Below, in pieces: positions 6,210-32,000 of a stretch of DNA of 32,000 nucleotides. Position 1 is the first letter of the stretch. Each line of letters opens with the position of its first letter. The position numbers were made by a program, and so were the translations under genes. A model generated the notes under the pieces. That model saw only the letters and a program-made list of their open reading frames with translations. It did not search any database and had not been told where the DNA came from. The DNA is from Halomicrobium mukohataei DSM 12286 (GTDB taxonomy: Archaea > Halobacteriota > Halobacteria > Halobacteriales > Haloarculaceae): the NCBI RefSeq assembly GCF_000023965.1, contig NC_013202.1, positions 1,290,001 through 1,322,000 of the forward strand, given 5' to 3'.

Positions 6210-6235
6210 TGTCGGTGTGTCGGACGGGGGGCAGC

Positions 6236-6246
6236 ATTTATTTTAT
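6236..6246 (-). promoter_or_regulatory. TATA-like box for the vWA/MoxR operon
   Basis: ATTTATTTTAT is centred about 32 nt upstream of the ATG at 6209, the usual spacing for leaderless haloarchaeal transcripts. Confidence 0.4.
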
Positions 6247-6444
6247 GCATTCAGTGACAGAACTCTGTGAGCGACGCCGTCACTCGACGGTGGCGAAGGC
6301 TCTCACGAAGCGACGGTCGACGGTATCAGTCGACCGGACGACGGCGGTCCCCGTCTCGACACCGAAGTGTGGCACCGGCACTCACGACTCACAATCTATC
6401 CACGATGACTGTGTTTAGCGCGGCTATAGAGTCGTCTCGTTTCG

Positions 6445-6915
6445 TTACTGCTCGTCAAGCATCCGGATGCCGCGCTCTACGACCGCCTCGGTCACGAAGA
6501 GACTCGTCTCACGCTGGAGTCTTCGCATGAGTGACGCCGCTTGGCTCCTGTCCAGTAATCCGCGGCCGTATCCCAGTGCGACGACTCCGATGGAACCGTG
6601 GACTTCGACGCCCGCGTCGGAAGCAGCCTCCCGAGCAGCGAAGTCGTCCGTCAGAAGCACCACTTCACACTCTTGTGCGACTGCTAACGCCGCACGTTCT
6701 CCTGCATCCAGCTCTTCGGATGTGACTCTCGTCTCGTCTGCTTCGACGAGTTCGTACGAGAATTCGGATACTCCCTCGGGAACGCCACCCGTCTCGACTT
6801 CCTCGTAGACCGTCTCCGGAATCAGGAGCCTATCGAACGCTGACAGTAGGTCGAGTGAGTCGATTTCGGCGAGGTGAATGAGTGGCCCGGCATCCGAGAC
6901 GGCCGCGAGCGTCAC
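6445..6915 (-). CDS. PIN-like nuclease toxin (DUF3368/COG2405-type)
   Basis: 156 aa with a GTG start at 6915-6913 overlapping the antitoxin stop (GTGA). AVSDAGPLIHLAEI...IPETVYEEV...VVLLTDDFAAREAA gives the conserved acidic residues of a PIN fold. Pairing with a UPF0175 gene is the classic arrangement for this family. Confidence 0.8.
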   Translation of the reverse strand: MTLAAVSDAGPLIHLAEIDSLDLLSAFDRLLIPETVYEEVETGGVPEGVSEFSYELVEADETRVTSEELDAGERAALAVAQECEVVLLTDDFAAREAASDAGVEVHGSIGVVALGYGRGLLDRSQAASLMRRLQRETSLFVTEAVVERGIRMLDEQ

Positions 6916-7163
6916 GCGTTCAGGCCCCAGTCGACGTCTTCCTCGACGACCTCACGCTCCCGTTCGGCACGCTCGACCCTCGTCCGACCGACGCGTTCGA
7001 TGGTTTCCTCGCGGTTGAGCTCTCCGTCGAAGTACTGTGCGAGTGCGAGATCCTCCCACAGATCTTCGAGACCGCGTTCGAGCGCGCGCTCGAAAACCTC
7101 GGACTCGGGAAGGCCCCGAGCCTCGGCGATTTCGCGAACGCGGTCGGAAAGTCCAGCAGCCAT
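6912..7163 (-). CDS. UPF0175-family antitoxin
   Basis: 83 aa, small and acidic (MAAGLSDRVREIAEARGLPESEVFERALERGLEDLWEDLALAQYFDGELNREETIERVG...), typical of UPF0175/COG2886. Lies immediately upstream of, and overlapping, the PIN gene. Confidence 0.8.
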   Translation of the reverse strand: MAAGLSDRVREIAEARGLPESEVFERALERGLEDLWEDLALAQYFDGELNREETIERVGRTRVERAEREREVVEEDVDWGLNA

Positions 7164-7188
7164 ACCGCATGTTTGCTCCGCGCCCTCC

Positions 7189-7194
7189 TTAAAT
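7189..7194 (-). promoter_or_regulatory. TATA-like box of the toxin-antitoxin operon
   Basis: ATTTAA on the minus strand is centred about 28 nt upstream of the antitoxin ATG (7163). Confidence 0.4.
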
Positions 7195-7215
7195 CCGCGT
7201 TTGCTTGCCCGTCGA

Positions 7216-7500
7216 GGTAGTGTTCAGATACGCTGATTCCATGCAAAGCTGAACGATCTGAGTCAGCCGTCAGCTGTGTCTGGATCGACAGCGGCGTACA
7301 GCCAATACTGCTCGTCATCGATTTGGATCACAGCGGACGATTGTGCACACGAACGACGGCCCGCTTCACACGCCGGAGAACAGAGCTCAAACGCGTCGAA
7401 CGCACCGTCGATCCATCGAGAGACAAGTCTGGCTGATACCGTCGTGAATCACAGGGACTGGCAGTCAGTCATAGGATTTTCCGCTCGCCGCCCGACCAGC
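7216..7500. mobile_element. Decayed IS6-family insertion sequence (one terminal inverted repeat plus transposase fragments)
   Basis: GGTAGTGTTCAGATA at 7216-7230 is identical to the first 15 nt of the 17-nt left terminal repeat of the MITE at 9212 (they diverge at nt 16-17). It starts with GG as IS6-family ends do. Frameshifted IS6-type transposase fragments lie just inside it. No second end was found before the LPMO gene. Confidence 0.6.
7263..7500 (-). pseudogene. IS6-family DDE transposase pseudogene (frameshifted, internally deleted)
   Basis: Minus-strand translation of 7331-7263 gives VIQIDDEQYWLYAAVDPDTADG*. This resembles the region after the first catalytic Asp of IS6 transposases (compare IS26 VDETYVKVNGRW.YLYRAID). 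Further upstream, in other frames, lie ..DCQSL / VIHD / YQPDLSLDG.., resembling the helix-turn-helix segment of haloarchaeal IS6 transposases as I recall them. At least two frame changes are present and everything after the first Asp region is missing. Confidence 0.55.
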
Positions 7501-7506
7501 AACTGT

Positions 7507-7512
7507 AAAAAA
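7507..7512 (-). terminator. Oligo-T tract downstream of the LPMO gene
   Basis: The minus strand reads CCTTTTTTACA about 40 nt after the stop at 7554. Archaeal termination commonly uses T-runs. Confidence 0.35.
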
Positions 7513-7553
7513 GGAGTCGATTCGCTTCTTCCGGTGGAAATGTTACCTTCTCA

Positions 7554-8735
7554 CTACTCTACTCGTTCCCACGGCCCCCACTGGGAGCTACCGGGTTCGT
7601 CACCCTGAGTCCACCAGTTGGCTTCCCACGTTTCGCCGTCATAGCTCACCTGATCTCCACTTGTGTAGGCCGTACTCGAATTCCACTTGGGCACGTCCGG
7701 CTGATCGGGTGTGTCGGGCTGATCTGGCGTGTCAGTTGGCGTGTCGGGCTGATCTGGCGTGTCATCGCCTGAGACCTGCTCCCAGGGACCCCACTCGGAG
7801 GAACCGGGTTCGTCACCCTGCGTCCACCAGTTGGCCTCCCACGTTTTGCCGTTGTAGGTCACCTGGTCGCCGCTCGTGTACGTGGCTCCGGAGTCCCACG
7901 CGGGCACGTCCGGCTGATCTGGCGTGTCGGGCTGATCTGGCGTGTCAGTTGGCGTGTCGGGCTGATCTGGCGTGTCAGTTGGCGTGTCGGGCTGATCTGG
8001 CGTGTCAGTTGGCGTGTCGGGCTGATCTGGCGTATCATCGTTGCCATCATCAGCGCCGGCAATGTCAACATAGGAGCACGAATAGAACGCTTCTGGCGAA
8101 TCGGATCGCTGCCAGACCATGTAGATGACGTGTTCCTTGTTATCGCGGTCGGGGACGTCCACACCACTGATCTCCGTCGTTTCAGTGGGACTCATTGGAC
8201 CCGTTTCGTGGATCTGTTCTAGGTCGTCCCACGCAAGCGCGGTGTCTGGATTCCATCCATCCTTGGTCATGTAGAACCTGAAGTACTCGGCTTCGTGTGG
8301 CGCGGTCAGATCGAGAGTAAACGTCTGCGTACCGGGCTCGATCGTCGTCGAAGGCCAGTCTCCAGGCTCATCGTACGGAGCGTATCTTTCGCTTCCGGCA
8401 CTACAGAGTTCACCGTCATCGATGTTCTCCTGGTGATCGCCGCCCGCATCACCGTCGCGAATTCCCTGCCAGTTGTAGATTGCCTGTCCGCTCTGCTCGC
8501 GTGCAAACTCACACATCTCGTTTGTCTCTCCCTCATTCTTGACCTCCTCGTAACAGGCCAACCCCTGGCCAATTGGATCCGACGGTGCTCCATGGGCGGC
8601 GGCCGTCTGTACCGCAACGAGGCCGAGAACCGTCAAAAAGAGGATCAGTACCCCCGTCTTTGCGACACGTGACTTGGTGACACGTGGTAGGCTACTCCCC
8701 GCAACTCGTTTGTGTATTACCGGATCTTCCCCCAT
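7554..8735 (-). CDS. Secreted AA10 lytic polysaccharide monooxygenase with two C-terminal CBM5/12 carbohydrate-binding modules
   Basis: 393 aa. A signal peptide ends ...VQTAAA|HG, exposing the N-terminal His of the copper histidine brace. The catalytic domain has AA10 hallmarks: IYNW, DGELCSAG, second His in TAPHEAEYFRFYMTKDGWNPD..LAWDDLEQI, and WQRSDSPEAFYSCSYVDI, close to the actinobacterial CelS2-type pattern. Two (PDQPDTPTDT)n linkers each precede a CBM5/12-like module (AWDSGATYTSGDQVTYNGKTWEANWWTQGDEPGSSEWGPWEQV and KWNSSTAYTSGDQVSYDGETWEANWWTQGDEPGSSQWGPWERV). Confidence 0.9.
   Translation of the reverse strand: MGEDPVIHKRVAGSSLPRVTKSRVAKTGVLILFLTVLGLVAVQTAAAHGAPSDPIGQGLACYEEVKNEGETNEMCEFAREQSGQAIYNWQGIRDGDAGGDHQENIDDGELCSAGSERYAPYDEPGDWPSTTIEPGTQTFTLDLTAPHEAEYFRFYMTKDGWNPDTALAWDDLEQIHETGPMSPTETTEISGVDVPDRDNKEHVIYMVWQRSDSPEAFYSCSYVDIAGADDGNDDTPDQPDTPTDTPDQPDTPTDTPDQPDTPTDTPDQPDTPDQPDVPAWDSGATYTSGDQVTYNGKTWEANWWTQGDEPGSSEWGPWEQVSGDDTPDQPDTPTDTPDQPDTPDQPDVPKWNSSTAYTSGDQVSYDGETWEANWWTQGDEPGSSQWGPWERVE
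7695..7766 (-). repeat. Coding tandem repeat (second PDQPDTPTDT linker)
   Basis: Repeated GGCTGATCTGGCGTGTCAGTTGGCGTGTCG-type units encode the Pro/Asp/Thr linker between the two CBM5/12 modules. Confidence 0.9.
7908..8039 (-). repeat. Coding tandem repeat, 30-nt period, about 4 copies (first PDQPDTPTDT linker)
   Basis: GCTGATCTGG recurs at 7931, 7961, 7991 and 8021 (exact 30-nt period), with an 18-nt half unit at 7913. Encodes TPDQPDTPTDTPDQPDTPTDT... between the catalytic domain and the first CBM. Confidence 0.95.
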
Positions 8736-8764
8736 TGTTGATCCATTCTTCGTTGCGTTAGGAC

Positions 8765-8779
8765 TATATATATAATTTT
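8765..8779 (-). promoter_or_regulatory. AT-rich TATA region upstream of the LPMO gene
   Basis: TATATATATAATTTT lies 30-44 nt upstream of the ATG at 8735. It is the only strongly AT-rich tract in this intergenic region. Confidence 0.4.
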
Positions 8780-9211
8780 CGTCAAGGACCTAAAACAAAG
8801 ATGGGCTATTCGTTTCAAATTTTGCTCAATAGTGTGTCACTATCGGTCGTATGGCCCCACCCTCGGCGTTTTGTCGGGTCCCACGTCGCGTGGGTGGCAA
8901 ACCCCGTCCCCTCTGAGTCTCCGCTGACTTTTCGCCAGACCCGTTCTCTAGGTCGTTTGGCGTTCTCTGTCCGAACGTTGCGACGAGCTATCGTCGCTGG
9001 TTGTTACGACCTCTCTCAGAGGGTAGCAGACGCGATTCTCTGACGTTCACGTCTTTCTCGAAATGTGTGGACGGAAAGCTGGCCTCGGCACTCATAGGGT
9101 TCGTCACTGCGCGGTGGTCATCCACACTCGGAACCGCAATCGCTCGTCATCGGCCACTCGATCGTAGTGAGTCCCCGACAAAGACGGTTGCTCATCGCGG
9201 ACGGGCCGACG

Positions 9212-15710: not shown

Positions 15711-15775
15711 TACCGTCGGCTGGGCCGTCCGTCAGAAAGACGCCGTCTGCCGAGGGCGGACAGTCGCTCGTACGA

Positions 15776-15843
15776 CCGGCTGTACATCTGTCACGGATTT
15801 TGCCACCCCGGGGTGGCGAAGATCTGCACGAAGGGACAGCCGG
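15776..15843. repeat. 68-bp palindromic intergenic element, copy E2
   Basis: CCGGCTGT (15776-15783) pairs with ACAGCCGG (15836-15843), around a perfect 16-bp palindrome GCCACCCCGGGGTGGC (15802-15817). Both share the same symmetry centre. It aligns at 50/68 positions with 22908-22975. Located between convergent gene ends. Confidence 0.75.
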
Positions 15844-15848
15844 CAGCA

Positions 15849-18259: not shown

Positions 18260-18276
18260 GGCGGTGTTCAGATATG
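18260..18276. mobile_element. Solo IS6-type terminal repeat remnant
   Basis: GGCGGTGTTCAGATATG matches the MITE/IS terminal repeat consensus GGTRGTGTTCAGATAAG at 15/17. Only about 55 bp separate it from the stop of the signal peptidase gene, so no element body remains. Confidence 0.55.
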
Positions 18277-18329
18277 GCTGAAAAGTGAAGCGGTACGTTT
18301 TCAAAGTGATCTATGCCGGCGCTCACCGG

Positions 18330-19502
18330 TCAGTCCAGACGACGGCGGAGTCTGGTCCCCAGTGACGCGTTCCCGCCCTCGCGGACCCTGACGGTCCGGA
18401 ACCCGACGACGCGACTCACCACGAGCGTCGTGACGCCCACCAGCACGGCGTTGACCGCGGCGAGTGCGAGCAGCGGGTGTCGCTCGTGGAGTGTGGCGAC
18501 GACCGGGGCGGGCAGCACGTGGAGATAGCGATACTCCGTCACCGACAGGACCGTCTGCTCGCCCGGTTCGGGTGCGGTCGCCGACACCGACAGCGTCGCG
18601 GCCTGTCCGGGCCCTACGGTCAGTTGCTCGTCGAGGACGCTGGTGCCGGCACTCTCTCCCTCGAACACGAGCACGATCGGGACCAGTCCGTAGTTGTCGA
18701 CACCGATCTCCCAGGTGGCGTCGTCGCCGGGGACGATGTCTGGGCTCTGGGCGACGGTGTCGCCGTCGACGACCAGCTCCTGCGTTCCGCCGCCCGCGAG
18801 CATGGCGGCGTTGGCCGGGACCAGCACTGCGAGCACCAGCAGTATCGTCGCCGTTCGCGCGTCGAGCAGTCCGGGGCGGTCGCGCGAACGATCGGTGCTG
18901 CGCTTTCGTTCGTCGTCGACCACGAGCGTGAGGGCAAACAGTACGAACCCCACGGCAAAGAGGAGGACACCCGAGCCCTGCCGGTCCAGCGAATCGCCGA
19001 AGCCGACGAGCTCGGCGAAGCCGGACTGCAGCGCGAGAATGCCGTCCTGGACCGCACCGACTCCGACGCCGAGCGCCGGGATGACGACGACCGTGCCGTC
19101 GATCTGGAGCGCGTGGGCGACGATCTGATCGTCGGTCACCGGCGGCTCGGGACCGTCCTGGTCGGTAAAGGGGTTGGCGTCGCCCTTCGTGATGTATCCC
19201 TCGTCGGTCTCGCCGACGACGCGGTGGGTGGTCAGCCCACCGCCCTGGAGCTCTCTGGCCTCGTAGACGATCACGTCACCTTCGTCGACGCTTCCGGCGA
19301 GGATCGACGGCACCGCGACGAAGCCGTCGCCGGTGTCGATCGTCGGTTCCATGCTCCCCGTCTCGACGTACGAAAACAGGATCGGCTGGCCGAGGATCGC
19401 CCCGAGTACCAGCGCCGCGACGGCGACGATCGCGGCCACTTCGAGCGCGGTCCCGACGGTCGCGCGAACTGACACGGGGCGACGTAGACGCCCGAGCGAC
19501 AA
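18330..19502 (-). CDS. Signal peptidase I, archaeal/ER (S26B, SipW-like) type, with about 230-aa C-terminal multi-TM extension
   Basis: 390 aa as listed. The listed start is TTG (19502-19500), and a GTG at 19475 is an alternative. Has an N-terminal TM, the catalytic Ser box SYVETGSMEPT, the His box TTHRVV (Ser/His type) and GDAN. Extra TM helices and a beta-rich domain then follow (QELVVDGDTVAQSPDIVPGDDATWEIGVDNYGLVPIVLVFEG...ATLSVSATAPEPGEQTV). A final TM helix closes the protein. Confidence 0.85.
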   Translation of the reverse strand: MSLGRLRRPVSVRATVGTALEVAAIVAVAALVLGAILGQPILFSYVETGSMEPTIDTGDGFVAVPSILAGSVDEGDVIVYEARELQGGGLTTHRVVGETDEGYITKGDANPFTDQDGPEPPVTDDQIVAHALQIDGTVVVIPALGVGVGAVQDGILALQSGFAELVGFGDSLDRQGSGVLLFAVGFVLFALTLVVDDERKRSTDRSRDRPGLLDARTATILLVLAVLVPANAAMLAGGGTQELVVDGDTVAQSPDIVPGDDATWEIGVDNYGLVPIVLVFEGESAGTSVLDEQLTVGPGQAATLSVSATAPEPGEQTVLSVTEYRYLHVLPAPVVATLHERHPLLALAAVNAVLVGVTTLVVSRVVGFRTVRVREGGNASLGTRLRRRLD

Positions 19503-19517
19503 AAGCGTTCTCGGCCG

Positions 19518-20405
19518 TCAGATCGGTGTTTCCTCGCCCGGCAACTGGGCCCCGACTTCGACGGTCGTGTACGTCGCGATGAACCCCAGCGCGTAGCCCA
19601 GCAGGTGAACGTAGACGTTGACCACGGTTGCTCCCGTCGCTGCCGTCGGCGGGAAGGCGACGAAGAAAAACGAGACGAAGACGACGCCGGAAAAGCCCAG
19701 TAGCTCGGCGTTGCCCGGCCGATAGGAGATCCCGCGGAGCTTCCGGACGACATCCGTCACACGATCCGGGGCCGAGAGCCAGTACAGCAGCGCCGCCAGG
19801 ATCGCGGTCAAGATCAGTCCGGCAGTGCCCAGCCACACCGTCGCCCGATCTCGCTGGACCGACTGGACGCTCAGCCCCGCGACGAGTGCGATACCCAGGA
19901 AGAAGAGGGTCGGTGCGACCGTCTCACTGGGTCCCACGTCGGCGTGGACTTCGAGGTGGTCTGCCAGTGCCAGCGGGAGGTAGCCGACGAAGGCCATCGT
20001 CACTCCGGAGAAACCGGTGCCGGCGGCCGGACGAACGACCGCCAGATTGAGGTACGACAGCAAGACCGGGAACACCAGGACGAACGTGAAGAAAGCCGCG
20101 AAAAAGCGGCTCCGACGCCCGCTCGCGACGCTCAGCAGGTACGCCACCGGGACGACGAGGAAGTATCCTACGACGTTGACCGCGAGATGGGTCGTGGTGA
20201 GGTGGACGAACGGCGCAGTCGCCGCCGTCAGTAACGTCGGTTCCGTGTACTCGAAGACCAGTGACTGCCGCGTCGACAGCGGCAGGAGAAAGATCAGGCC
20301 CAGCACTATCGGAACTGAAAACAGGACCGCGATGTCGGTCGGGTGGAAGCCACTCCAGCGTGGCGAGATCCGGCCAGAACTCTCGACGGTGTTCCGATTG
20401 CTCAT
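19518..20405 (-). CDS. Rhomboid-family intramembrane serine protease
   Basis: The track ORF (to 20456) begins at a TTG. The first ATG at 20405 gives MSNRNTVESSG... It is polytopic with the three rhomboid signatures in order: HxxxN (HLAVN), the GxSG catalytic serine (GFSGV) and HxxGxxxG (HLLGYALG). Confidence 0.8.
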   Translation of the reverse strand: MSNRNTVESSGRISPRWSGFHPTDIAVLFSVPIVLGLIFLLPLSTRQSLVFEYTEPTLLTAATAPFVHLTTTHLAVNVVGYFLVVPVAYLLSVASGRRSRFFAAFFTFVLVFPVLLSYLNLAVVRPAAGTGFSGVTMAFVGYLPLALADHLEVHADVGPSETVAPTLFFLGIALVAGLSVQSVQRDRATVWLGTAGLILTAILAALLYWLSAPDRVTDVVRKLRGISYRPGNAELLGFSGVVFVSFFFVAFPPTAATGATVVNVYVHLLGYALGFIATYTTVEVGAQLPGEETPI

Positions 20406-20495
20406 AACGAGCTCGATCGGAGATGCGCCCGTCTCACGCTTGAGCGTTCTCGCCAAAATATCAGAGCTGAAAATTGGATTCGGTCCCAGAGTCGC

Positions 20496-22028
20496 CTAGT
20501 GCTCGTCGTCCGTCTCGACGCGGAGGGTCGCGATCGCCTCGACGGCGTCGGCTTCGAGCACCAGCCGGACGGCGAGGGAACCACCGGCCGGGATTGCGTG
20601 GGGCGACGTGTCGTCGTCGGGGAAGTCGGTCACGTCGTCGCCGTCGATGTGCTCGATCGTCACGCCGTCCGTGACCGGCGCTCCCTCTTCGTCGAGGGCG
20701 ACGATCCGTACGCTTGCCGCGCTCGATCCGGCGTTTCTGACGGTGAACGCGGGGTCGAGCGTCACGGTCTCGTCGTCGGCCACGTCGTAGCCCAGTATCG
20801 TCCTCCCGTCCTCGGTCTCGCCGACCGAGGCGGACTCGCCGCCGAGGAGTTCGAGCGTCGCCGGGCTCTCGTCGGCGAGGACGGCGACGAAGTCGTGCTC
20901 GTCGGACCGCCACAGGACGAACGCGAGGAGACCCGCGGCCAGCACCACCAGTCCGCCCAGGAGCACCGGCGCGAAGCCACCGAGCTCCAGTGGCGACTGA
21001 CTCTGCTCGCCGACCGTGACCGTCACGGACTCGTTGTGGCCCTGAATCTCGTACGATCCCGGCTCGTCGAAGCTAACGGTGCCGCTGACGGTCGTCCGTT
21101 CGCCCGGTTCGAGCGTCACCGTCTCGGACGCGATGACGCCGCCACCGCCGCGAATCTCGACCGCCCTCGTCGCGGTGTCCGCCCCGCGGTTCTCGACGGT
21201 CGCCGTCACCGTGATCGTCTCCCCGACGGTCGGCGACTCGGGGTCGGTCGTCAGGCCGACCACTTCGATCCCCGCCGTCGACGCGTTCGTCGGCTGGCCG
21301 CCGCCACCGACCTCGGTCCGGGTCGGCGTGGGCGTCGCGGTTCCGGGAGTGGTGGTGCCGTCGCCCGTCGATTCCGTCGGCGTCGCGGTGTCGTCGGTCG
21401 TGTCACCGCCACCCGTGCCGCCGCCGGTCGTGCCGCTGCCCGTAGTGTCGGTCGGCGTCGGGGTATCCGTCGGCGTCGCGGTCGAGGCTGGCGGTCCGCC
21501 GGTGCCTCCACCGCCAGTGCCTCCGCCGCCAGTGCCTCCACCGCCCGTTCCACCGCCGCCGGTCCCGCCTTCGCTGGTCTCGTCGGGAATCTCGGCGCGG
21601 AGCGTGATCGACTCCATGACGACGCCGGGCGTTCCGCTCTCGACGGCGAACCCGATCCGAACGGATTCGCCGTCGGTGAGCGTCACCGGATCGGTCTCGT
21701 CTTCGACGGACGTGCCGGTGTCCATCCGGTAGAAATTGACGGCAGAACGGTCGTCTTCGATCCAGACGCTGGCCTCTGCCAGATCGGTGCCGAGGACGAA
21801 CACGTCGTCGACGACGGTTCGCGAGTCCGGATTCAGGTTCGAGATCTCGACGCGAAGCTGCCCGTCCGGTCCGATCTCGGCGTACTGCTCCCCGTTGGCC
21901 GTGTCGGCGGGATCGAGATAGACGCCACGGACGGCCTCGTCACCCGTCGCGAACGCACCAGTAGTCGTGGCGATGGCGAAAGCGCCGGCTACCAGGAGTG
22001 CGAGGAACAGCGACCGGTGAGTGTCCAT
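20496..22028 (-). CDS. Surface protein: signal peptide, DUF1102-like module, Gly/Thr linker, CARDB-like Ig domain, TM helix, second DUF1102-like module
   Basis: 510 aa. Signal MDTHRSLFLALLVAGAFAIATTTGAFA, then a beta-rich module (VYLDPADTANGEQYAEIGPDGQLRVEISNLNPDSRTVVDDVFVLG..VWIEDD). (GGTGG)5 and T/P/D linkers follow, then a CARDB-like domain (TVGETITVTATVENRGADTATRAVEIRGGG...EPGSYEI). Next comes the TM helix FAPVLLGGLVVLAAGLLAFVLW. About 150 further residues resemble the first module (TLDPAFTVRNAGSSAASVRIVALDE..). Confidence 0.75.
   Translation of the reverse strand: MDTHRSLFLALLVAGAFAIATTTGAFATGDEAVRGVYLDPADTANGEQYAEIGPDGQLRVEISNLNPDSRTVVDDVFVLGTDLAEASVWIEDDRSAVNFYRMDTGTSVEDETDPVTLTDGESVRIGFAVESGTPGVVMESITLRAEIPDETSEGGTGGGGTGGGGTGGGGTGGGGTGGPPASTATPTDTPTPTDTTGSGTTGGGTGGGDTTDDTATPTESTGDGTTTPGTATPTPTRTEVGGGGQPTNASTAGIEVVGLTTDPESPTVGETITVTATVENRGADTATRAVEIRGGGGVIASETVTLEPGERTTVSGTVSFDEPGSYEIQGHNESVTVTVGEQSQSPLELGGFAPVLLGGLVVLAAGLLAFVLWRSDEHDFVAVLADESPATLELLGGESASVGETEDGRTILGYDVADDETVTLDPAFTVRNAGSSAASVRIVALDEEGAPVTDGVTIEHIDGDDVTDFPDDDTSPHAIPAGGSLAVRLVLEADAVEAIATLRVETDDEH
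21496..21570 (-). repeat. Coding tandem repeat, 15-nt unit x5, encoding (GGTGG)5
   Basis: CCGCCGGTGCCTCCA / CCGCCAGTGCCTCCG / CCGCCAGTGCCTCCA / CCGCCCGTTCCACCG / CCGCCGGTCCCGCCT are read directly. The minus strand encodes GGTGGGGTGGGGTGGGGTGGGGTGG. Confidence 0.9.
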
Positions 22029-22115
22029 CTCGTTACCTTACCATTCGTCTAGCTCGTTTTGCCGTCGGCTGGGTAGTCGCTACGGCCGCGTCGTCTGTCT
22101 GGCGGGAGACCGAGA

Positions 22116-22688
22116 TCAGTTCTCGTTGGCGACGATCACGAGCGATCCGTTTCCGTCGGTGCTGGGGGAGTCCGGCACTTCTTTGCCGGCCTTGACCGTC
22201 GCTTTGAGGTCGAGCGAGCCTCCGCTGCTGCCCGAGGATCCACCGGTCAGCGGGTTCTGTGTGCCATCGAGGTCGAACGTCACGATCGCGTCGAGATCGC
22301 CGCCGGTACCGATACCGATCGTCGCGCTGTCACCGGCGGAACCGCCCGAGGGCCCGTTCAGCTGGATGTCCACGTCGGTCGCGGAGTTGTTCGTGATCGT
22401 GACGACGGAGTCGATGATCGTCGTCGCGTCGTCGTTCAGCCCCTCTGCACCGCCACCACTACTCGCACCGAGTGCCTCACCGATGTTGATGGTCAGCGTG
22501 TCGCCGGTGGTGTCGTTCGTGACGTAGGTGCCGTCTCCTGCGAGACCGATCAGACCGGACGCGTCACCGGTGGTGGTGACGTCGACCGTTCGGTCCGCTT
22601 CGACCGTCGTCAGGGCACCGCTGCCCAGGACTGCGCCGCTTCCAACTGCCGCTGTGCCAATGCCGATGAGTAGGTTCCGTCGATTCAT
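22116..22688 (-). CDS. Small secreted protein with RR signal peptide, DUF1102-like (candidate major subunit of the locus)
   Basis: 190 aa. MNRRNLLIGIGTAAVGSGAVLGSGALTTVEADRTVDVTTTGDASGLIGL is a Tat-like RR plus hydrophobic core, followed by the A-D-R-x-V-x-V...D-A-x-x-L-I-G motif shared with the 285-aa paralogue. The rest is a G/T/D/S-rich beta protein (GLNDDATTIIDSVVTITNNSATDVDIQL). First gene of the minus-strand operon. Confidence 0.8.
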   Translation of the reverse strand: MNRRNLLIGIGTAAVGSGAVLGSGALTTVEADRTVDVTTTGDASGLIGLAGDGTYVTNDTTGDTLTINIGEALGASSGGGAEGLNDDATTIIDSVVTITNNSATDVDIQLNGPSGGSAGDSATIGIGTGGDLDAIVTFDLDGTQNPLTGGSSGSSGGSLDLKATVKAGKEVPDSPSTDGNGSLVIVANEN

Positions 22689-22902
22689 AGTTCACGACCA
22701 CCCACCAAGGTGGTTATCGTAACATGTTCACCCACTCATAAATAGCTTGCGCGTCTTTCGCTTCCTGAAGTCGAGATATCCAGCGTTTCATACCGTCTAT
22801 TGCGTGTTTGTCGTTGTCACACCCGCAATAAGGCGACGTGATTGTACTATTAAAACAGTGATGCTTGGGCGAAAGCAACCGTCGGGCCGGTCGTCATCTT
22901 GA

Positions 22903-22980
22903 TACTGCCGGCTGTACGTCTGTACAGAATTTCGCGACCCCGTGGTCGCGAATCTCGTGACACAGTTACAGCCGGCTGTA
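22903..22980. repeat. Palindromic intergenic element, copy E1 (78-bp nested palindrome)
   Basis: The outer sites are TACTGCCGGCTGTA (22903-22916) and the perfect palindrome TACAGCCGGCTGTA (22967-22980). The inner hairpin is TTCGCGACC-CCGT-GGTCGCGAA (22931-52). All share the symmetry centre at 22941/22942. TCTGTACAGA (22919-22928) is a further 10-bp palindrome. The core 22908-22975 aligns 50/68 with 15776-15843. Confidence 0.8.
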
Positions 22981-23022
22981 TGACCGTCACGTCTTTGGTA
23001 GTGGCCCAGACAGTAGCGTGCA

Positions 23023-24195
23023 ATGGGAACGGGCGACAGTTCGGCGTCGGTACTGCGAGTGCGTCACCTGATCGCACAGCACCTCGCGATCGCGGTGGTC
23101 GTCTGCCTGGTGCTGGCCGGGGCCGGTGGGTTCGTCGCCTACGCCGAGTACAGCGCGCCCGACACGACGACCGAGCAACGCGTCACCGCCTCGTGGACGA
23201 CCGACAGCTCGTTCGCCCACCAGGCCACCGTCGAGCGCTCGACACGGGCCTTCGAGGCGGGCACGGTCCTCCGGAACCGATCGGCGTACCTGTTTCGCGT
23301 GACGCCGACGCTGACCGGAGAGTACCGGTTCCGACACGAGGGCGCTCCCGGGGCGGCGACCGTCGCGACGGACGTACAGCTGGTCAAGCGCTCGGTCGGC
23401 GGGACCGGCGACGACCGCACCGAGTTCTGGCGCGTCACCGACTCGCTGGCCTCGGCGGAGACGACGATCGCACCCGGCGAGAGCGCACGCACGAGCTTTC
23501 GGGTGAACGTCTCCCGGCAGCGCAACGAGACCAGGCAGATCGAGCGCGAACTCGGTGGGACGCCGGGGCGCATCGAGCTGTTCGTCCTCGTCACCACGAA
23601 CGTGACGACGACCGTGGACGGAGAGCGACTCGAACGGAGCCGGACCGAGCGACTGACGATCCGACCGGCCACCGCCACGTACGCAGTCACATCGAACACG
23701 ACGGGTGCGCGAGACGAGCCGATCAGCACGGAGACCGTCTCCGTCCCCGTCGAGAAGAACAGCGCCCGGATCTACGGCGGCGTGGCGTTCGCAGTGCTTT
23801 CGCTGCTCGCCGCGGCGGGACTGGTCGTCGCCGACCGCCGCGATCGGCTGTCGGTCCCACCCGAGACGGTCGCAGCGATACGGACCGAACGGACGCGCGA
23901 CCGCTTCGACGAGTGGATCTCGGTCGGGCGCGTCCCCGAACCGGCCGACGACGACCGCGTCGTCACCGTCGACTCGCTGACGGACTTAGTCGACGTGGCG
24001 ATCGACAGCGATCGCCGCGTGATCGAGGACGGCGACGACGGCCGGTTCGTGGTACTCGTCGACCGGGTGCGGTACTGCTACGAGCCCCGAGCCCCGACTG
24101 CCGGCTCGACGGAGTCGGTGAGTGACGGCTCCAACGGGGCGACCGACTCCGTCGGCGAAGATGGCCCGGACCCGGCGAGAGACGACGACAGCTGA
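23023..24195 (+). CDS. Two-TM membrane protein, DUF5305-like architecture
   Basis: 390 aa. Has an N-terminal TM (LAIAVVVCLVLAGAGGFVAY) and an extracytoplasmic domain of about 230 aa (TASWTTDSSFAHQATVE..RNRSAYLFRVTPTLTGEYRF..). A second TM (IYGGVAFAVLSLLAAAGLVVA) and an acidic cytoplasmic tail (DEWISVGRVPEP..VVTVDSLTDLVDVAIDSDRRVIEDGD) follow. I recall this layout as DUF5305, often annotated next to archaeal signal peptidase genes. Not verifiable here. Confidence 0.7.
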   Translation: MGTGDSSASVLRVRHLIAQHLAIAVVVCLVLAGAGGFVAYAEYSAPDTTTEQRVTASWTTDSSFAHQATVERSTRAFEAGTVLRNRSAYLFRVTPTLTGEYRFRHEGAPGAATVATDVQLVKRSVGGTGDDRTEFWRVTDSLASAETTIAPGESARTSFRVNVSRQRNETRQIERELGGTPGRIELFVLVTTNVTTTVDGERLERSRTERLTIRPATATYAVTSNTTGARDEPISTETVSVPVEKNSARIYGGVAFAVLSLLAAAGLVVADRRDRLSVPPETVAAIRTERTRDRFDEWISVGRVPEPADDDRVVTVDSLTDLVDVAIDSDRRVIEDGDDGRFVVLVDRVRYCYEPRAPTAGSTESVSDGSNGATDSVGEDGPDPARDDDS

Positions 24196-24217
24196 GCCGA
24201 CGCGCTGTCTCCGGCGC

Positions 24218-25075
24218 TCACACCTGTGCTATCTTCCAGAACTGGTTTTTGACGCTCGGATTCGATCCCTTCCAGGGCCACTGGATCGCCGCCAGGCCTG
24301 TTTCGGTCTCACCGCCCTCGATGTCGATGACGTACCCGCTCCCCTCGTTTTCGATCCGATACTGGTCTGGTGCGTTCGGTATCGGCACGACGTTCCAGCG
24401 CTGGTAGTCCGTTCCGTCCGGAGATTCGAGTACCAGTGGTGACCCGCTGCTGTCGCGGTTCTCCGGCGTGATGACGCCGTCACGCCAATAGTGCTCTATC
24501 GTGTACGCACAGCCGTCTCCGGTCGGTGTAAAGTACCACGAAGTGGGGAAACCCAATTGCTCGACTCTGTTATCATTCCACCAGTCGTATCCCAAATATC
24601 GACGATCAGAATGCATCGGTGAGAGTTGATACGATCCTTTACTGAGCGGTAGCGTCGTCACCCGTCGCGTCAGATCGATCTCCGCTCCCTGCCCCGTCGC
24701 GCTAATTCGCACCTCGTCGGCGGTGCCATCGTCCGGGGCGAACTCCACGTCGACGGTGTTGTCGGGTCCCGGCGGCAGCGGGAACTGGACCCGCTTGCGC
24801 CGTCGTTCCGTTCGCGGATGCAGCACGTCGATAGCGTCGGTCTCGATCTCGACGACGAACTGGTTCTGGCCGTTGTTCGTGAGCGAGAGCCCGCCGCCAC
24901 AGCCCGATGTGCCCTCGATACCGAGCAACGCGTCGGAGTCGGAAACGACATCGACGGAGGTCTGTCGATTCGCCGTCGACTTCGCCAGCCCGAGCGTCTG
25001 TCCCGCGAGGAGAGCGCCACCGCTCCCCATGAGGGCCAGCGCACCGCGACGCGTGAGCGTTCGCCTGTCCACCAC
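24218..25075 (-). CDS. Secreted DUF1102-like module fused to a ricin-type beta-trefoil lectin domain
   Basis: 285 aa with a GTG start. The Tat-like signal is VDRRTLTRRGALALMGSGGALLAGQTLGLA. TANRQTSVDVVSDSDALLGIEG and LSLTNNGQNQFVVEIE parallel the 190-aa protein. The C-terminal ~130 aa carry three QxW repeats (YQRWNVV, AIQWPW, NQFWKI), typical of ricin B/CBM13 lectins. Confidence 0.8.
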   Translation of the reverse strand: MVDRRTLTRRGALALMGSGGALLAGQTLGLAKSTANRQTSVDVVSDSDALLGIEGTSGCGGGLSLTNNGQNQFVVEIETDAIDVLHPRTERRRKRVQFPLPPGPDNTVDVEFAPDDGTADEVRISATGQGAEIDLTRRVTTLPLSKGSYQLSPMHSDRRYLGYDWWNDNRVEQLGFPTSWYFTPTGDGCAYTIEHYWRDGVITPENRDSSGSPLVLESPDGTDYQRWNVVPIPNAPDQYRIENEGSGYVIDIEGGETETGLAAIQWPWKGSNPSVKNQFWKIAQV

Positions 25076-29765: not shown

Positions 29766-30356
29766 GTGGAACGTATTCCGATTCCAGGTGGGCGTGACGT
29801 GCGGGCCGTCCTCGACGGCTCTGGTGCGGACCGCGCCGTCGTCGCGTGCCCGCCCCATCCCGAGATGGGCGGCTCTCGTAGCGACCGGCGCTTGCGGGCG
29901 GTCAGCGACGCGCTCGGGGATCGTGGCGTCGCCTGCCTCCGCTTCGACTACGGCCCGTGGGACGAGGGCCGCGGCGAGCGCCGTGACTGTCTCGCGGCGC
30001 TGGAGTGGGCCCGCGAGCGGTTCGACTCGGTCGCGCTCTTTGGCTACAGTTTCGGCGCTGGCGTCGCGTTGCTCGCGGCGGCCGAAGCCGACCCACAGCC
30101 CGCCGCCGTCTCGGTGCTCGCGCCGCCGGCACGACTGGACGACGGCACGGAGACGCCGCCGGCCGTCGGCGACATCGACTGCCCGCTCCAAGTGTGCTAC
30201 GGCGAGCGCGACGACACCGTCGACTGGCGGCCGGTCGTCGCCGCTGCCCGCGACCGCGGAGCGACTATCGAATCGCTGCCGGCCGACCACCACTTCGTGG
30301 GACAGGGCGAGCGTGTTAGTGTGTGTATCACGTCATTTAACGAAATACATCTATGA
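29766..30356 (+). CDS. Alpha/beta-fold hydrolase (COG2945-like)
   Basis: A GTG start at 29766 is preferred, giving (V)ERIPIPGGRDVRAVLDG..VVACPPHPEMGGSRSDRRLRAVSDAL..GVACLRFDYG. The nucleophile elbow is GYSFG, with C-terminal PADHHF. The track ATG at 29685 would overlap the pspA start and the shared TATA. The last 13 codons (VSVCITSFNEIHL) run into AT-rich DNA. Confidence 0.7.
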   Translation: MERIPIPGGRDVRAVLDGSGADRAVVACPPHPEMGGSRSDRRLRAVSDALGDRGVACLRFDYGPWDEGRGERRDCLAALEWARERFDSVALFGYSFGAGVALLAAAEADPQPAAVSVLAPPARLDDGTETPPAVGDIDCPLQVCYGERDDTVDWRPVVAAARDRGATIESLPADHHFVGQGERVSVCITSFNEIHL

Positions 30357-30800
30357 ATGGCAGATGTCATCTGGAAACATCCACTACGTGGGTGACTATG
30401 ACAAGCGCTGTGATTGAACCTGCGGCAAGTGTTAGGAATCCACTCTCAGAAGCGGGGATCTGGTCAGCAAGGAGTGTAAGTTGAATGGATATCAACATCC
30501 ACGTAATGTGCCTTATACCATTATTTTTCATATATTAATATTATTCTTATATTTTATATATCTTCGTATTACATCATCGATGTCTTCAGCCATATTATAC
30601 CTTGGACATTTAGTCCGATATCTATAGTATATTTTTGGGTTTTTAAATGGGATATGGGGCTTGTATTACTGCCGCCTCGGCATTGTCTAGTTCTGGACCT
30701 CTTCATGCTACCGGCTATACATCCGTCACAAAGCTATAGCCGGCAGTATAATTCTACCTGCCGTATTCCCTTGATAACCCGTTCCATGAGAGGAAGTTCC
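30316..30800. other. AT-rich island (compositionally foreign intergenic DNA)
   Basis: Direct count: the three 60-nt lines 30481-30660 contain only 16, 15 and 21 G+C. The lines on either side (30361-30480 and 30661-30780) hold 28-32 G+C, and neighbouring coding DNA is far richer still. Contains element copy E3 and two tiny minus-strand ORFs. Confidence 0.8.
30711..30743. repeat. Palindromic intergenic element, mini copy E3
   Basis: CCGGCTATA (30711-30719) pairs with TATAGCCGG (30735-30743) across a 15-nt spacer. CCGGCTATACATCCGTCAC resembles CCGGCTGTACATCTGTCAC of E2. TATAGCCGGCAGTA (30735-30748) matches the TAYAGCCGGCWGTA sites of E1. Confidence 0.6.
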
Positions 30801-30836
30801 CGAAACGGTTTTCAACACAGGTAGCGGACCGTCGGT

Positions 30837-32000
30837 ATGCCGACGGAACCTGAGACTGACTACGACCCGGAACTGGGTCGGAAGTTCATTTTCGTAACGG
30901 GAGGCGTGATGTCCGGGCTGGGCAAGGGGATCACCGCCGCGAGTACCGGCCGACTACTGAAAAACGCGGGCTTCGACGTGACCGCCGTCAAGATCGATCC
31001 GTACCTCAACGTCGACGCCGGGACGATGAACCCGTTCCAGCACGGCGAGGTGTACGTGCTGAAAGACGGCGGGGAGGTCGACCTCGACTTGGGGAACTAC
31101 GAGCGGTTCCTCGACATCGACATGACCTTCGACCACAACATCACGACCGGCAAGACCTACCAGCACGTCATCGAGAAAGAGCGGGCCGGCGACTACCTGG
31201 GCAAGACGGTCCAGATCATCCCGCACATCACCGACGACATCAAGCGTCGCATCCGCGAGGCCGCCAAGGGCAACGACGTGTGTATCATCGAGGTTGGCGG
31301 GACAGTCGGGGACATCGAGGGGATGCCCTACCTCGAAGCGCTGCGCCAGTTCGCCCACGAGGAAGACGACGACGACATTCTCTTTACCCACGTCACGCTC
31401 GTCCCCTACTCGATGAACGGCGAGCAAAAGACCAAGCCGACCCAGCACTCGGTGAAGGAACTGCGCTCGATCGGGCTCCAGCCCGACATCCTCGTCGGCC
31501 GCTCGGAGGACAAACTCGACATCGACACCCGCGAGAAGATCGCGCTGTTCTGTGACGTACCGACCGAGGCGGTGTTCTCTAACCCCGACGTCTCTGACAT
31601 CTACCACGTCCCGCTGATGGTCGAAGAGGCCGGACTCGACCAGTACGTGATGGAGCAACTCGACATCGCGGACGAGGCGCTCCCACCCGAGCAACGGGAG
31701 AACCGCTGGCGCGAACTCGTGACCCAGCAGACGACCGGCGAGATCGACGTGGCGCTGGTCGGCAAGTACGACCTCGAAGACGCCTACATGTCCGTCCACG
31801 AGGCGCTGAAACACGCCGGTCTCGAAGCCAACGTCGACGTGAACGTCGAGTGGGTCGACTCCGAGGAGATGAGCGACCACCACGTCGACCGGCTCCACGA
31901 CGCCGACGCGGTCGTGGTTCCCGGCGGTTTCGGCTCTCGCGGGACCGCGGGCAAGGTCGAGGCGATCCGCTACGCCCGCGAGAACGACGTGCCGTTCCTG
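30837..32000 (+). CDS. pyrG: CTP synthase (first 388 codons; continues beyond the right window edge)
   Basis: Absent from the track because it is open-ended. ATG 30837 gives [92 protein letters not shown]...[23 protein letters not shown]. The start of the glutamine amidotransferase domain follows ([30 protein letters not shown]). Confidence 0.95.

Follow-up and report, generated by a model that had tools for sequence, protein, structure and literature searches.

A TafE-type tafi gene cluster of Halomicrobium mukohataei and its putative anchor-processing rhomboid protease

Why should an operon for a haloarchaeal surface fibre contain a gene for an intramembrane protease? The question is raised by a locus at positions 18330-25075 of a 32,000-nucleotide (nt) stretch of Halomicrobium mukohataei DSM 12286 (NC_013202.1; "the window" below means this whole stretch, to which coordinates refer unless another locus is named). 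An initial annotation of the window had proposed a TasA-like donor-strand fibre with a dedicated endoplasmic reticulum (ER)-type signal peptidase, a small secreted protein as major subunit, a lectin fusion at the tip and a 510-amino-acid (aa) protein as anchor, and had known of no functional description of such a system in Halobacteria. The architecture agrees with the published model of thin tat-fimbriae (tafi), while the statement on the literature is out of date, such descriptions having appeared since 2023. As judged by sequence comparison, the locus is a TafE-type tafi cluster like that of Natrinema, with a ricin-lectin tip and a fused anchor, and the best single explanation is very probably a complete cluster of this type together with a rhomboid protease that acts on the TafF anchor. 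The tafi system itself is already known; the hypothesis of a conserved rhomboid and a candidate tail signal goes beyond the literature searched.

In Haloarcula (Har.) hispanica, the genes tafA to tafG encode thin tat-fimbriae composed of TafA, the major subunit, TafE and TafC (Galeva et al., bioRxiv 2023; iScience 2025, PMC11821415). Deletion of tafA or tafD abolishes the fibres, unprocessed precursor builds up in the absence of TafD, and an RR-to-KK substitution blocks export (PMC11821415). In that work TafC is the tip, TafF the proposed membrane anchor and TafG a DUF5305 protein, and tafA-tafG suffice for the formation of fimbriae in Haloferax (Hfx.) volcanii, which has no taf genes (PMC11821415). 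The fibres of Natrinema sp. J7-2 have a TafE-type major pilin and no TafA; their cryo-electron microscopy structure (PDB 9P0A) revealed strand donation, and less biofilm is formed when tafE is knocked out (Sonani et al., PNAS 2025, PMC12337348). Tafi have been placed in the TasA superfamily by HHpred (bioRxiv 10.64898/2026.01.04.697558). The parallels to archaeal DUF1102 proteins and to the fibres of Pyrobaculum drawn in the initial annotation were correct: Thermococcales and Archaeoglobales have DUF1102 proteins that are named as Sec-dependent structural analogues of tafi, encoded in clusters with TafD and DUF5305 homologues (PMC11821415).

Components of a TafE-type tafi cluster

The six open reading frames (ORFs) called at 18330-25075 have the order, coordinates and gaps first described for them. 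On the minus strand, the pilin gene is followed after 87 nt by tafF, tafF after 39 nt by the rhomboid gene, and the latter after 15 nt (or 42 nt if tafD starts at the next GTG) by tafD; tafG diverges from the pilin gene on the plus strand, and a tafC-like gene, again on the minus strand, completes the cluster. No tafA, tafB, second pilin or second peptidase gene was found in the 32-kb window.

The sole small pilin gene in the window (22116-22688, minus strand, 190 aa) is of the tafE type and presumably encodes the major fibre subunit. Two NCBIfam hidden Markov models (HMMs) match its product, that of TafE with an E-value of 1e-21 (77.5 bits, short of the equivalog cutoff, 155) and that of TafA with 7e-10, and its residues 1-159 align with the Tafi pilin of Natrinema sp. 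J7-2, PDB 9P0A (E 3.2e-10), the one structure of its type solved so far. No Pfam family was matched by the pilin at E<=1, and the membership of window proteins in DUF1102 (PF06510) or TasA/Peptidase_M73 that had been considered earlier was not found at this threshold; two distant homologues of the pilin are labelled DUF1102 in UniRef. The putative twin-arginine translocation (Tat) signal begins with MNRRNLL, and residues R3, R4, G22, G24, A25, R33 and D42 are invariant in an alignment of 33 homologues, whose signal peptides are very rich in Gly, Ser and Ala. Cleavage by TafD is predicted after GSGA25, because mature Har. hispanica TafA begins at Phe-30, right after the equivalent G-S-G-A box. 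It would expose a candidate donor strand, LTTVEADRTVDVTTTGD (nt ~22554-22613), and from this conserved N-terminal strand and the homology to 9P0A we infer a filament built by donor-strand complementation.

The 285-aa product of the tafC-like gene (24218-25075, minus strand), the candidate tip adhesin, likewise carries a predicted Tat signal (DRRTL..RR), followed by a pilin-like N-domain (aa ~1-145) whose donor-strand motif ANRQTSVDVVSDSDALLGI aligns to this very strand, LTTVEADRTVDVTTTGD, of the pilin. For the signals of the pilin and tip proteins, the TAT-target region model TIGR02811 gives an E-value of 5e-4. The common N-terminal motif of the two proteins, already remarked upon together with their RR-type signals, is real but short: BLASTP aligns them weakly over 54 residues (E 0.009) and hhalign aligns the pilin profile to the N-terminus of the larger protein over 27 columns (E 2.6e-4). 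Each of them independently matches a Taf model, TafE for the pilin and TafC for the tip protein (E 6.3e-14, 52 bits, cutoff 410; residues 7-141, i.e., the N-domain only). The C-terminal part of the tip protein is a ricin-type beta-trefoil lectin (aa 180-283, nt 24227-24538; RicinB_lectin_2, E 1.1e-16 over residues 180-266). An orthologue with 89% identity is present at the equivalent place in Halomicrobium katesii.

The product of tafD (18330-19502, minus strand, 390 aa) is a dedicated S26B (ER/SipW-type) signal peptidase I. It scores 65.8 bits against the archaeal model TIGR02228 (sigpep_I_arch, cutoff 51.85), matches Pfam Peptidase_S26 weakly and reaches 37 bits, short of the cutoff of 190, with the SipW model NF046067. 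The predicted catalytic residues Ser50 and His93-Arg94 correspond to Ser-40 and to the pair His-83/Arg-84 of the published protein (PMC11821415), and the protein has extra transmembrane (TM) helices and a C-terminal extracytoplasmic domain. Homologues of tafD with 37-72% identity adjoin DUF5305 genes in more than 30 loci. The neighbouring tafG (23023-24195, plus strand, 390 aa), which is paired with tafD in most loci, encodes a DUF5305 membrane protein (E 1e-64, 218 bits), presumed to be an accessory subunit of the TafD peptidase; its role has been discussed in PMC11821415, and DUF5305 proteins are treated as signal-peptidase accessory subunits in bioRxiv 10.64898/2026.01.04.697558. The objection that such a peptidase might be the sole housekeeping Sec11 of its host does not apply to Har. 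hispanica, because a tafD deletion strain was obtained and analysed there (PMC11821415).

The presumed membrane anchor or terminator subunit, TafF (20496-22028, minus strand, 510 aa), matches the NCBIfam TafF model over residues 21-239 with an E-value of 6.7e-39 and 134 bits, short of the equivalog cutoff (420). A Sec signal peptide (aa 1-25) ends at TGA|F, and TafF too is probably cut by TafD, because this T-G-A|F box is invariant in homologues. The signal is followed by a pilin-like N-domain (aa ~26-150; beta domain 32-148 in the AlphaFold2 model), a Gly/Thr/Pro-rich linker modelled as disordered (aa 151-251) and a CARDB immunoglobulin (Ig)-like domain (aa 254-340, E 9e-8), which forms a confident sandwich in the model. 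The motif ELGGF (aa 348-352, nt 20973-20987) then abuts a single TM helix (353-375, nt 20904-20972), beyond which a C-terminal domain (aa 380-510, nt 20499-20891) is modelled confidently as a second beta-sandwich (380-506). By hhalign with the TafE profile, the N-domain is a homologue of the pilin (probability 96.5%, E 8e-10). The earlier proposal that the 510-aa protein contains two related beta-rich modules holds through the TafE profile, which matches both the N-domain (E 1.9e-8) and the C-domain (E 4.6e-7, probability 92.6%), and not through direct comparison, in which the two domains match weakly (E 0.008) and BLASTP paralogy is not significant. Foldseek recovered only generic Ig, fibronectin type III and CARDB sandwiches with the TafF model. 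The S26B peptidase, the DUF5305 protein and the ricin lectin named at the outset are all backed by profile matches.

The C-terminal pilin-like domain is predicted to face the cytoplasm, because the N-terminal signal is cleaved and TafF has a single TM helix. A donor-strand-type domain is not expected in the cytoplasm, and this is an odd point of the TafF type found in Halomicrobium and Halosimplex. The layout of a TM helix followed by a pilin-like domain occurs also in Halosimplex (loci L003, L005 and L014 of the set described below), in Haloglomus (L054) and in locus L057, and TafF1 and TafF2 of Natrinema have been described as "TM helix followed by jelly-roll" (PMC12337348). Two types of anchor may have been fused in the TafF of the window.

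A rhomboid protease encoded between tafF and tafD

The remaining gene of the operon (19518-20456, minus strand) encodes 312 aa, or 295 aa if translation starts at M18 (nt 20405), which is probably the true start, as homologues begin there; the gap to tafF would then be 90 nt. We found 164 homologues, all haloarchaeal; several of them are annotated or pre-scored as rhomboids, and many have a precomputed PF01694 match. In 16 of them, with 44-95% identity, H85, H90 and N94 (H-x4-H-x3-N), G148-x-S150-G151 (GFSG in the window protein) and H284-x2-G-x3-G are invariant. These are signature positions of rhomboid proteases, as known from GlpG. A second GFSG (residues 252-255) was considered as the catalytic site and rejected, as it is not conserved. 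Pfam Rhomboid (PF01694) is matched by 11 of the 16 clade members (best E 7e-7). Together with the invariant catalytic residues, this bears out the rhomboid assignment of the initial annotation, and on these sequence features the 312-aa protein is a rhomboid protease.

The best curated match of the clade is the rhombosortase HMM TIGR03902, matched by 15 of the 16 members (best E 1.4e-6) with all scores below the cutoff; the window protein reaches 17 bits against a cutoff of 84 (E 0.004). GlpG models are matched by only two of the 16. The AlphaFold2 model (pLDDT 78, pTM 0.77) has eight predicted TM helices, which can be read as a 6-TM core with two helices inserted after the fifth and before the last. 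The orientation of the catalytic helices is kept, with Ser150 at the N-terminal end of a TM helix (starting at 151) and His284 in the last helix (276-304).

The clade is distinct from Rho1 and Rho2 of Hfx. volcanii, and no Hfx. volcanii protein occurs among the 120 of the 164 homologues that were listed. A recent study of Hfx. volcanii rhomboids covers only Rho1 and Rho2 and names no physiological substrate. The word rhomboid is absent from the main text of both tafi papers (PMC11821415, PMC12337348), a mention in a supplementary table being possible, and our literature search returned no paper joining rhomboids and tafi.

Conserved linkage and a candidate tail signal

A scan of one genome per species gave 52 loci with a member of the rhomboid clade, and these loci were searched by tblastn with the window proteins. 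In about 32 of them tafD lies within 10 kb of the rhomboid gene, and in about 20 the rhomboid gene directly precedes tafD in the same orientation, commonly with tafG next. The association of rhomboid and tafD was seen, among others, in Halosimplex, Natronomonas, Haloarcula, Halorhabdus, Halobellus, Halorubrum, Halospeciosus, Halarchaeum and a Natrialbaceae genome. Other arrangements also occur: in the TafA-type cluster of Har. amylolytica the rhomboid gene comes right after tafF (L022), in Hfx. elongans (L012) and Hfx. larsenii (L013) it lies ~2.7 kb beyond tafG, and in a TafE-centred locus of Halovenus a tafF-like gene is followed by the rhomboid gene. The linkage of pilin, anchor, peptidase and DUF5305 genes is kept across many haloarchaeal groups, among them Halosimplex, Natronomonas, Haloarcula, Haloferax, Halorubrum and Natrialbaceae.

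Two side observations concern the composition of such clusters. Only the C-terminal part of the rhomboid was found by tblastn beside the TafA-type clusters of Har. argentinensis (L052:10001-10310) and Har. vallismortis (L051:121-237); these pieces are possibly pseudogenes, or else copies that have diverged or broken up. A ~180-aa DUF7344 gene adjoins tafE at L053:9188-9724, L054:9296-9856, L055:8891-9427, L057:9266-9802 and L056:11902-12504, divergent from tafE in four of the five loci, and is absent from the cluster of the window. Its product may be a TafB-type regulator of those clusters.

What would such a protease cleave? In 22 loci, the gene adjacent to that of the rhomboid (same strand, ending at most ~420 nt upstream) encodes a protein in which E-x-[A/G/S]-G-[L/F/I] abuts a hydrophobic helix. 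The tail has a recurrent layout, in which an acidic or Thr/Pro-rich linker leads to the motif, the motif to the helix, often with P or G within 3-8 residues, and the helix to a usually Arg-rich end. About 14 further loci have a variant of the motif or a convergent neighbour. In 32 anchored tails, E is present in 29, the small residue in all 32, G in 30 and L/F/I in 27, with G or P helix breakers downstream. In most of the 22 loci the protein ends with the TM helix and a short basic C-terminal tail, in place of which the TafF proteins of Halomicrobium and Halosimplex have a domain of ~130 aa. Examples are the internal motif of the window TafF at residues 348-352 (...PLELGGFAPVLLGG...) and the tails of Haloarcula (...PTELGGFSPGPLG...FRAFG-stop), Halorubrum (...DGELGGIGLLPTL...RIRRRE-stop, and, in proteins of 518-585 aa and 1338-3188 aa, ...EEPAGLGLPAIGG...RRRR...), Natronomonas (...GEQAGLDPSSLL...RRRR...) and Halospeciosus (...AEPSGLGLGSLGG...RRAPWR-stop).

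The proteins that carry this tail have unrelated ectodomains, i.e., TafF-type, PGF-pre-PGF-type and giants of 1300-3200 aa, and in three loci (L026, L036 and L048) the rhomboid gene and motif carriers are present with neither tafD nor a pilin gene within 10 kb. Among the ORFs with a C-terminal TM helix and basic tail in these loci, those adjacent to the rhomboid gene (within 700 nt) comprised 20 with the motif and seven without it, against four and 24, respectively, among the nonadjacent ones (odds ratio 17, Fisher p 9e-6, uncorrected for shared ancestry). The four nonadjacent motif carriers are second carriers in the same clusters. Eight of the tails were compared with the curated CTERM sorting models of NCBIfam release 20; none scored above cutoff, GlyGly-CTERM included, and two genuine PGF-CTERM tails of the same loci, used as control, did.

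Giant ORFs (1338 to more than 3188 aa) lie beside the rhomboid gene in Halorubrum and Halarchaeum (L027:2-9568, L040:2189-8074, L048:1914-8138, L036:4015-8031 and L032:10899-17918). Those of Halorubrum end in an E-E/D-P-A-G-L-G, TM, RR tail, and that of Halarchaeum (L032) has the variant SSKGGLPVV. They may be adhesins with a common proposed processing signal.

Fibre assembly, anchor processing and alternative explanations

The components described above suggest the following scenario, whose fibre-making steps are experimental for the Haloarcula and Natrinema homologues and are transferred here by homology. The pilin TafE and the tip protein would reach their fold in the cytoplasm and then be exported through the twin-arginine pathway. 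TafD, aided by TafG, would cut their signal peptides at G-S-G-A|L/F, and the freed N-terminal beta-strand (..VEADRTVDV..) would insert into the open jelly-roll of a neighbour, giving a thin bundling fibre. The lectin subunit at the tip would bind glycans, and TafF would end the fibre and tether it to the cell. As a further step, suggested by comparative data only, the rhomboid may cleave TafF at or near E-L-G-G|F, at the outer end of its TM helix, with the result that finished fibres are released into the biofilm matrix or that the protein anchor is exchanged for another attachment. Rhomboid substrates typically have an N-out/C-in orientation and helix-destabilising residues, and the TM segment of TafF fits them in both respects. 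From the position of the gene and the tail motif, we infer that the rhomboid processes TafF in a rhombosortase-like or sheddase-like way.

Several observations weigh against this interpretation. All four Taf HMM scores are below the NCBI equivalog cutoffs, and by this measure the window proteins are divergent family members and not orthologues of the type proteins. The window rhomboid alone has no Pfam Rhomboid match at E<=1, its model recovered only unrelated helical proteins and not GlpG when searched with Foldseek against the PDB, and a profile of the clade found no rhomboid among PDB sequences. With regard to linkage, about 11 of the 52 rhomboid genes are surrounded by housekeeping genes and have no target in view, and five TafE-centred loci (L053, L054, L055, L057 and L058) have no rhomboid gene within ~5-10 kb of tafE. 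Four of these five also lack the canonical motif, which is suggestive only, and L058 encodes a 248-aa TafF ending in FEIAGLSG-TM-RR with no rhomboid gene between tafF and tafD. The motif of the window TafF is internal, unlike a classical C-terminal sorting signal, and the Fisher test of motif and adjacency is uncorrected for shared ancestry. Finally, the Hfx. volcanii experiment with tafA-tafG means that the rhomboid clade is not needed to build tafi. Since these genes suffice, a role of the rhomboid should lie downstream of assembly, in release, anchor exchange or turnover.

The position of the gene could alternatively reflect quality control of the pilins, the rhomboid clearing unassembled or misassembled TafE and TafC, or uncleaved precursors, at the membrane. 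GlpG, which is needed for type 1 pili and cuts aggregated FimA (PMC12847965), offers a precedent, and both the proximity to tafD and pilin genes, seen in about 32 of the 52 loci, and the Gly/Ser/Ala-rich, hence helix-destabilising, pilin signal peptides would suit this role. It accounts poorly for the three loci in which the rhomboid stays beside motif-bearing anchor or adhesin genes without tafD or pilin. Signal peptides, moreover, have an N-in/C-out orientation, the reverse of that usual for rhomboid substrates, and tafi assemble in Hfx. volcanii without this rhomboid, though Rho1 and Rho2 are present there. We consider such quality control unlikely. We attach a similarly low probability to the proposal that the tail is a PGF-CTERM variant for archaeosortase A, or a plain anchor, and that the rhomboid acts elsewhere, e.g., on Tat components or signal-peptide remnants. 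The E-E-P-A-G-L-G of the Halorubrum targets does resemble P-G-F-G, and these proteins carry the PGF-pre-PGF domain usual before PGF-CTERM; yet none of the eight tails matched the PGF-CTERM model that recognised two genuine tails of the same loci, the Haloarculaceae form E-L-G-G-F has no proline, and permuting PGF is said to block processing by ArtA. The proposal would also agree with those taf loci in which an anchor with a C-terminal TM helix is retained without a nearby rhomboid. As for Tat, on which tafi depend, the rhomboid AarA reportedly activates TatA in Providencia stuartii, but no tat genes lie beside the rhomboid gene in the loci examined.

The least probable of the explanations, and in our view a very improbable one, is that the rhomboid is a housekeeping protease with no role in fibres, whose place beside tafD is the inherited synteny of one lineage. 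It would be consistent with the homologues found among metabolic genes (about 11 of 52), with the dispensability of the rhomboid for heterologous tafi assembly and with its absence from several taf loci. The linkage nevertheless recurs in Haloarculaceae, Haloferacaceae, Halorubrum, Halobacteriaceae and Natrialbaceae, in gene orders that are rearranged and still linked (target-rhomboid-tafD-tafG, tafD...tafF-rhomboid, or with a convergent target), and the clade is distinct from Rho1 and Rho2 of Hfx. volcanii.

Anchor processing by the rhomboid, the reading that we prefer, admits a broader version, in which the rhomboid of the taf loci, together with the tail of E-x-[A/G/S]-G-[L/F/I], TM helix and basic end, is an archaeal counterpart of rhombosortase/GlyGly-CTERM sorting. 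The protease would recognise a modular tail on TafF and on giant adhesins, and would re-anchor them, e.g., to lipid, or shed them with fibres attached; in Halomicrobium and Halosimplex, cleavage would free a membrane-tethered cytoplasmic pilin-like domain as a possible signal. We advance this wider version tentatively, and it may well prove incorrect. No description of such a sorting system in Archaea was found in the literature searched. Physiological substrates of haloarchaeal rhomboids are poorly defined, and anchor processing, if confirmed, would provide an archaeal rhomboid with a natural substrate and extend rhombosortase-type sorting to Archaea. If true, it would also offer a testable account of the interconversion between "finalised", cell-bound fibres and those free in the matrix.

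Comparison with related systems

The locus adds one tafi cluster to more than 1,400 TafE homologues catalogued, and illustrates the modularity of tafi: the tip is a ricin lectin here and a laminin-G or unrelated domain elsewhere, the presumed major subunit is TafE-type without TafA or TafB, and the anchor is fused. The Natrinema system is similar in having a TafE-type protein with a Tat signal as sole small pilin, no tafA, both tafD and tafG, and a two-domain tip; strand-donation assembly and a bundling, biofilm-related role would be expected in Halomicrobium too. The window differs from it in lacking tafB, in its ricin tip, in its single TafF combining pilin-like, linker, CARDB, TM and second pilin-like segments, and in its rhomboid gene, none having been described in the Natrinema locus of the paper (PMC12337348). 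With Har. hispanica, the cluster shares families D, E, F and G and the N-domain of TafC, the proposed subunit order of tip, adapter or pilin, and anchor, the GSGA|F box and the need of TafD for processing. There, however, TafA is the major pilin and TafE an adapter, the lectin of TafC is laminin-G/ConA-like, three TM helices lie at the C-terminus of TafF and a TafB regulator is present.

The Bacillus subtilis tapA-sipW-tasA operon also combines a dedicated S26B peptidase with donor-strand subunits and an accessory or anchor protein, and functions in the biofilm matrix. Its subunits are exported by Sec and not by Tat, it has no lectin tip and, as the initial annotation rightly noted, no counterpart of the rhomboid; TafD of the window further differs from SipW by its extra TM helices, C-terminal domain and DUF5305 partner. 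The relationship to TasA is at the superfamily level only, according to the literature, with no Peptidase_M73/TasA match here.

Rhombosortases of Vibrio, Shewanella and other Gram-negative bacteria are often encoded next to a single client (PMC3237569; bioRxiv 10.1101/2023.06.07.544157). As in the haloarchaeal loci, the protease is paired, often by adjacency, with clients of varied ectodomains, and the GlyGly-CTERM tail is tripartite, a small Gly motif abutting a TM helix followed by basic residues, an arrangement that is internal in the window TafF. The differences concern the protease (17 against 84 bits, eight TM helices here instead of six), the motif, which is unmatched by curated models, the internal position of the window signal, and the archaeal host, which has no outer membrane or type II secretion system. 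In Escherichia coli, type 1 pili are not assembled properly without GlpG, which cuts FimA that has aggregated (PMC12847965); here, too, a rhomboid has a functional link with a pilus built by donor-strand exchange and with the formation of biofilm. Unlike the gene studied here, glpG lies outside the fim operon; its target is aggregated periplasmic FimA and not a membrane anchor, and there is no specific sequence relation beyond the superfamily.

Genomic setting and other features of the window

The initial annotation had considered the locus as possible accessory DNA, which is not supported. A recently acquired island was rejected: the window is collinear with H. katesii DSM 19301 from 9581 to 30492 at 96.6% identity, an IS6 remnant next to the locus lies inside this conserved block, and the G+C content, 60-70% throughout, is unremarkable in the locus. 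A database protein labelled "MULTISPECIES Halomicrobium" has 100% identity to TafF. The locus is thus chromosomal and conserved within Halomicrobium. Stretches of lower G+C (0.55-0.61, compared with about 0.65-0.72 elsewhere) are found at window positions 6001-9000 and 30001-31000.

The IS6 remnant is a solo terminal fragment at 18260-18317, between the stop codon of tafD and a hexapeptide-repeat gene. Its identification at 18260 as an IS6 end scar was confirmed by blastn matches in 38 haloarchaeal plasmid records, with 86-92% identity to IS6 ends (best 91.7% over 59 nt, E 1e-13), which overlap or adjoin genes annotated as IS6 family transposases; the plasmids come from Halobacterium, Halorubrum, Haloferax, Natrinema and other genera. 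The sequence occurs once in the window, and the insertion event is old, because the fragment is inside the block common to H. katesii. The downstream flank of the window, with the hexapeptide-repeat gene followed by the GCS2 gene, is also kept in L058 (a JGI metagenome contig of 12.6 kb).

An imperfect palindrome of ~76 nt with 38-nt arms is located at 22900-22983, in the intergenic region of the divergent tafE and tafG genes, 40 nt upstream of the tafG start. Copies of this element had been thought to flank or punctuate the locus; one indeed lies inside it, but the second (15772-15848), just downstream of a 592-aa GCS2-type gene, is 2.5 kb outside and not at the border. Both copies have the core CCGGCTGTAC...GTACAGCCGG, and the hairpin is predicted to fold with -47 kcal/mol (z -7.6). 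The palindrome is kept at the same site in H. katesii and is not conserved outside Halomicrobium. It may represent a repeat resembling miniature inverted-repeat transposable elements or repetitive extragenic palindromes, a terminator or an operator; a conserved operator of the taf promoter was rejected, since the element occurs in Halomicrobium only and its second copy is at an unrelated site. The only Rfam match in the window is the C/D-box small RNA sR-tMet, at 9081-9155 on the minus strand (53.9 bits, E 8e-8, above the gathering score).

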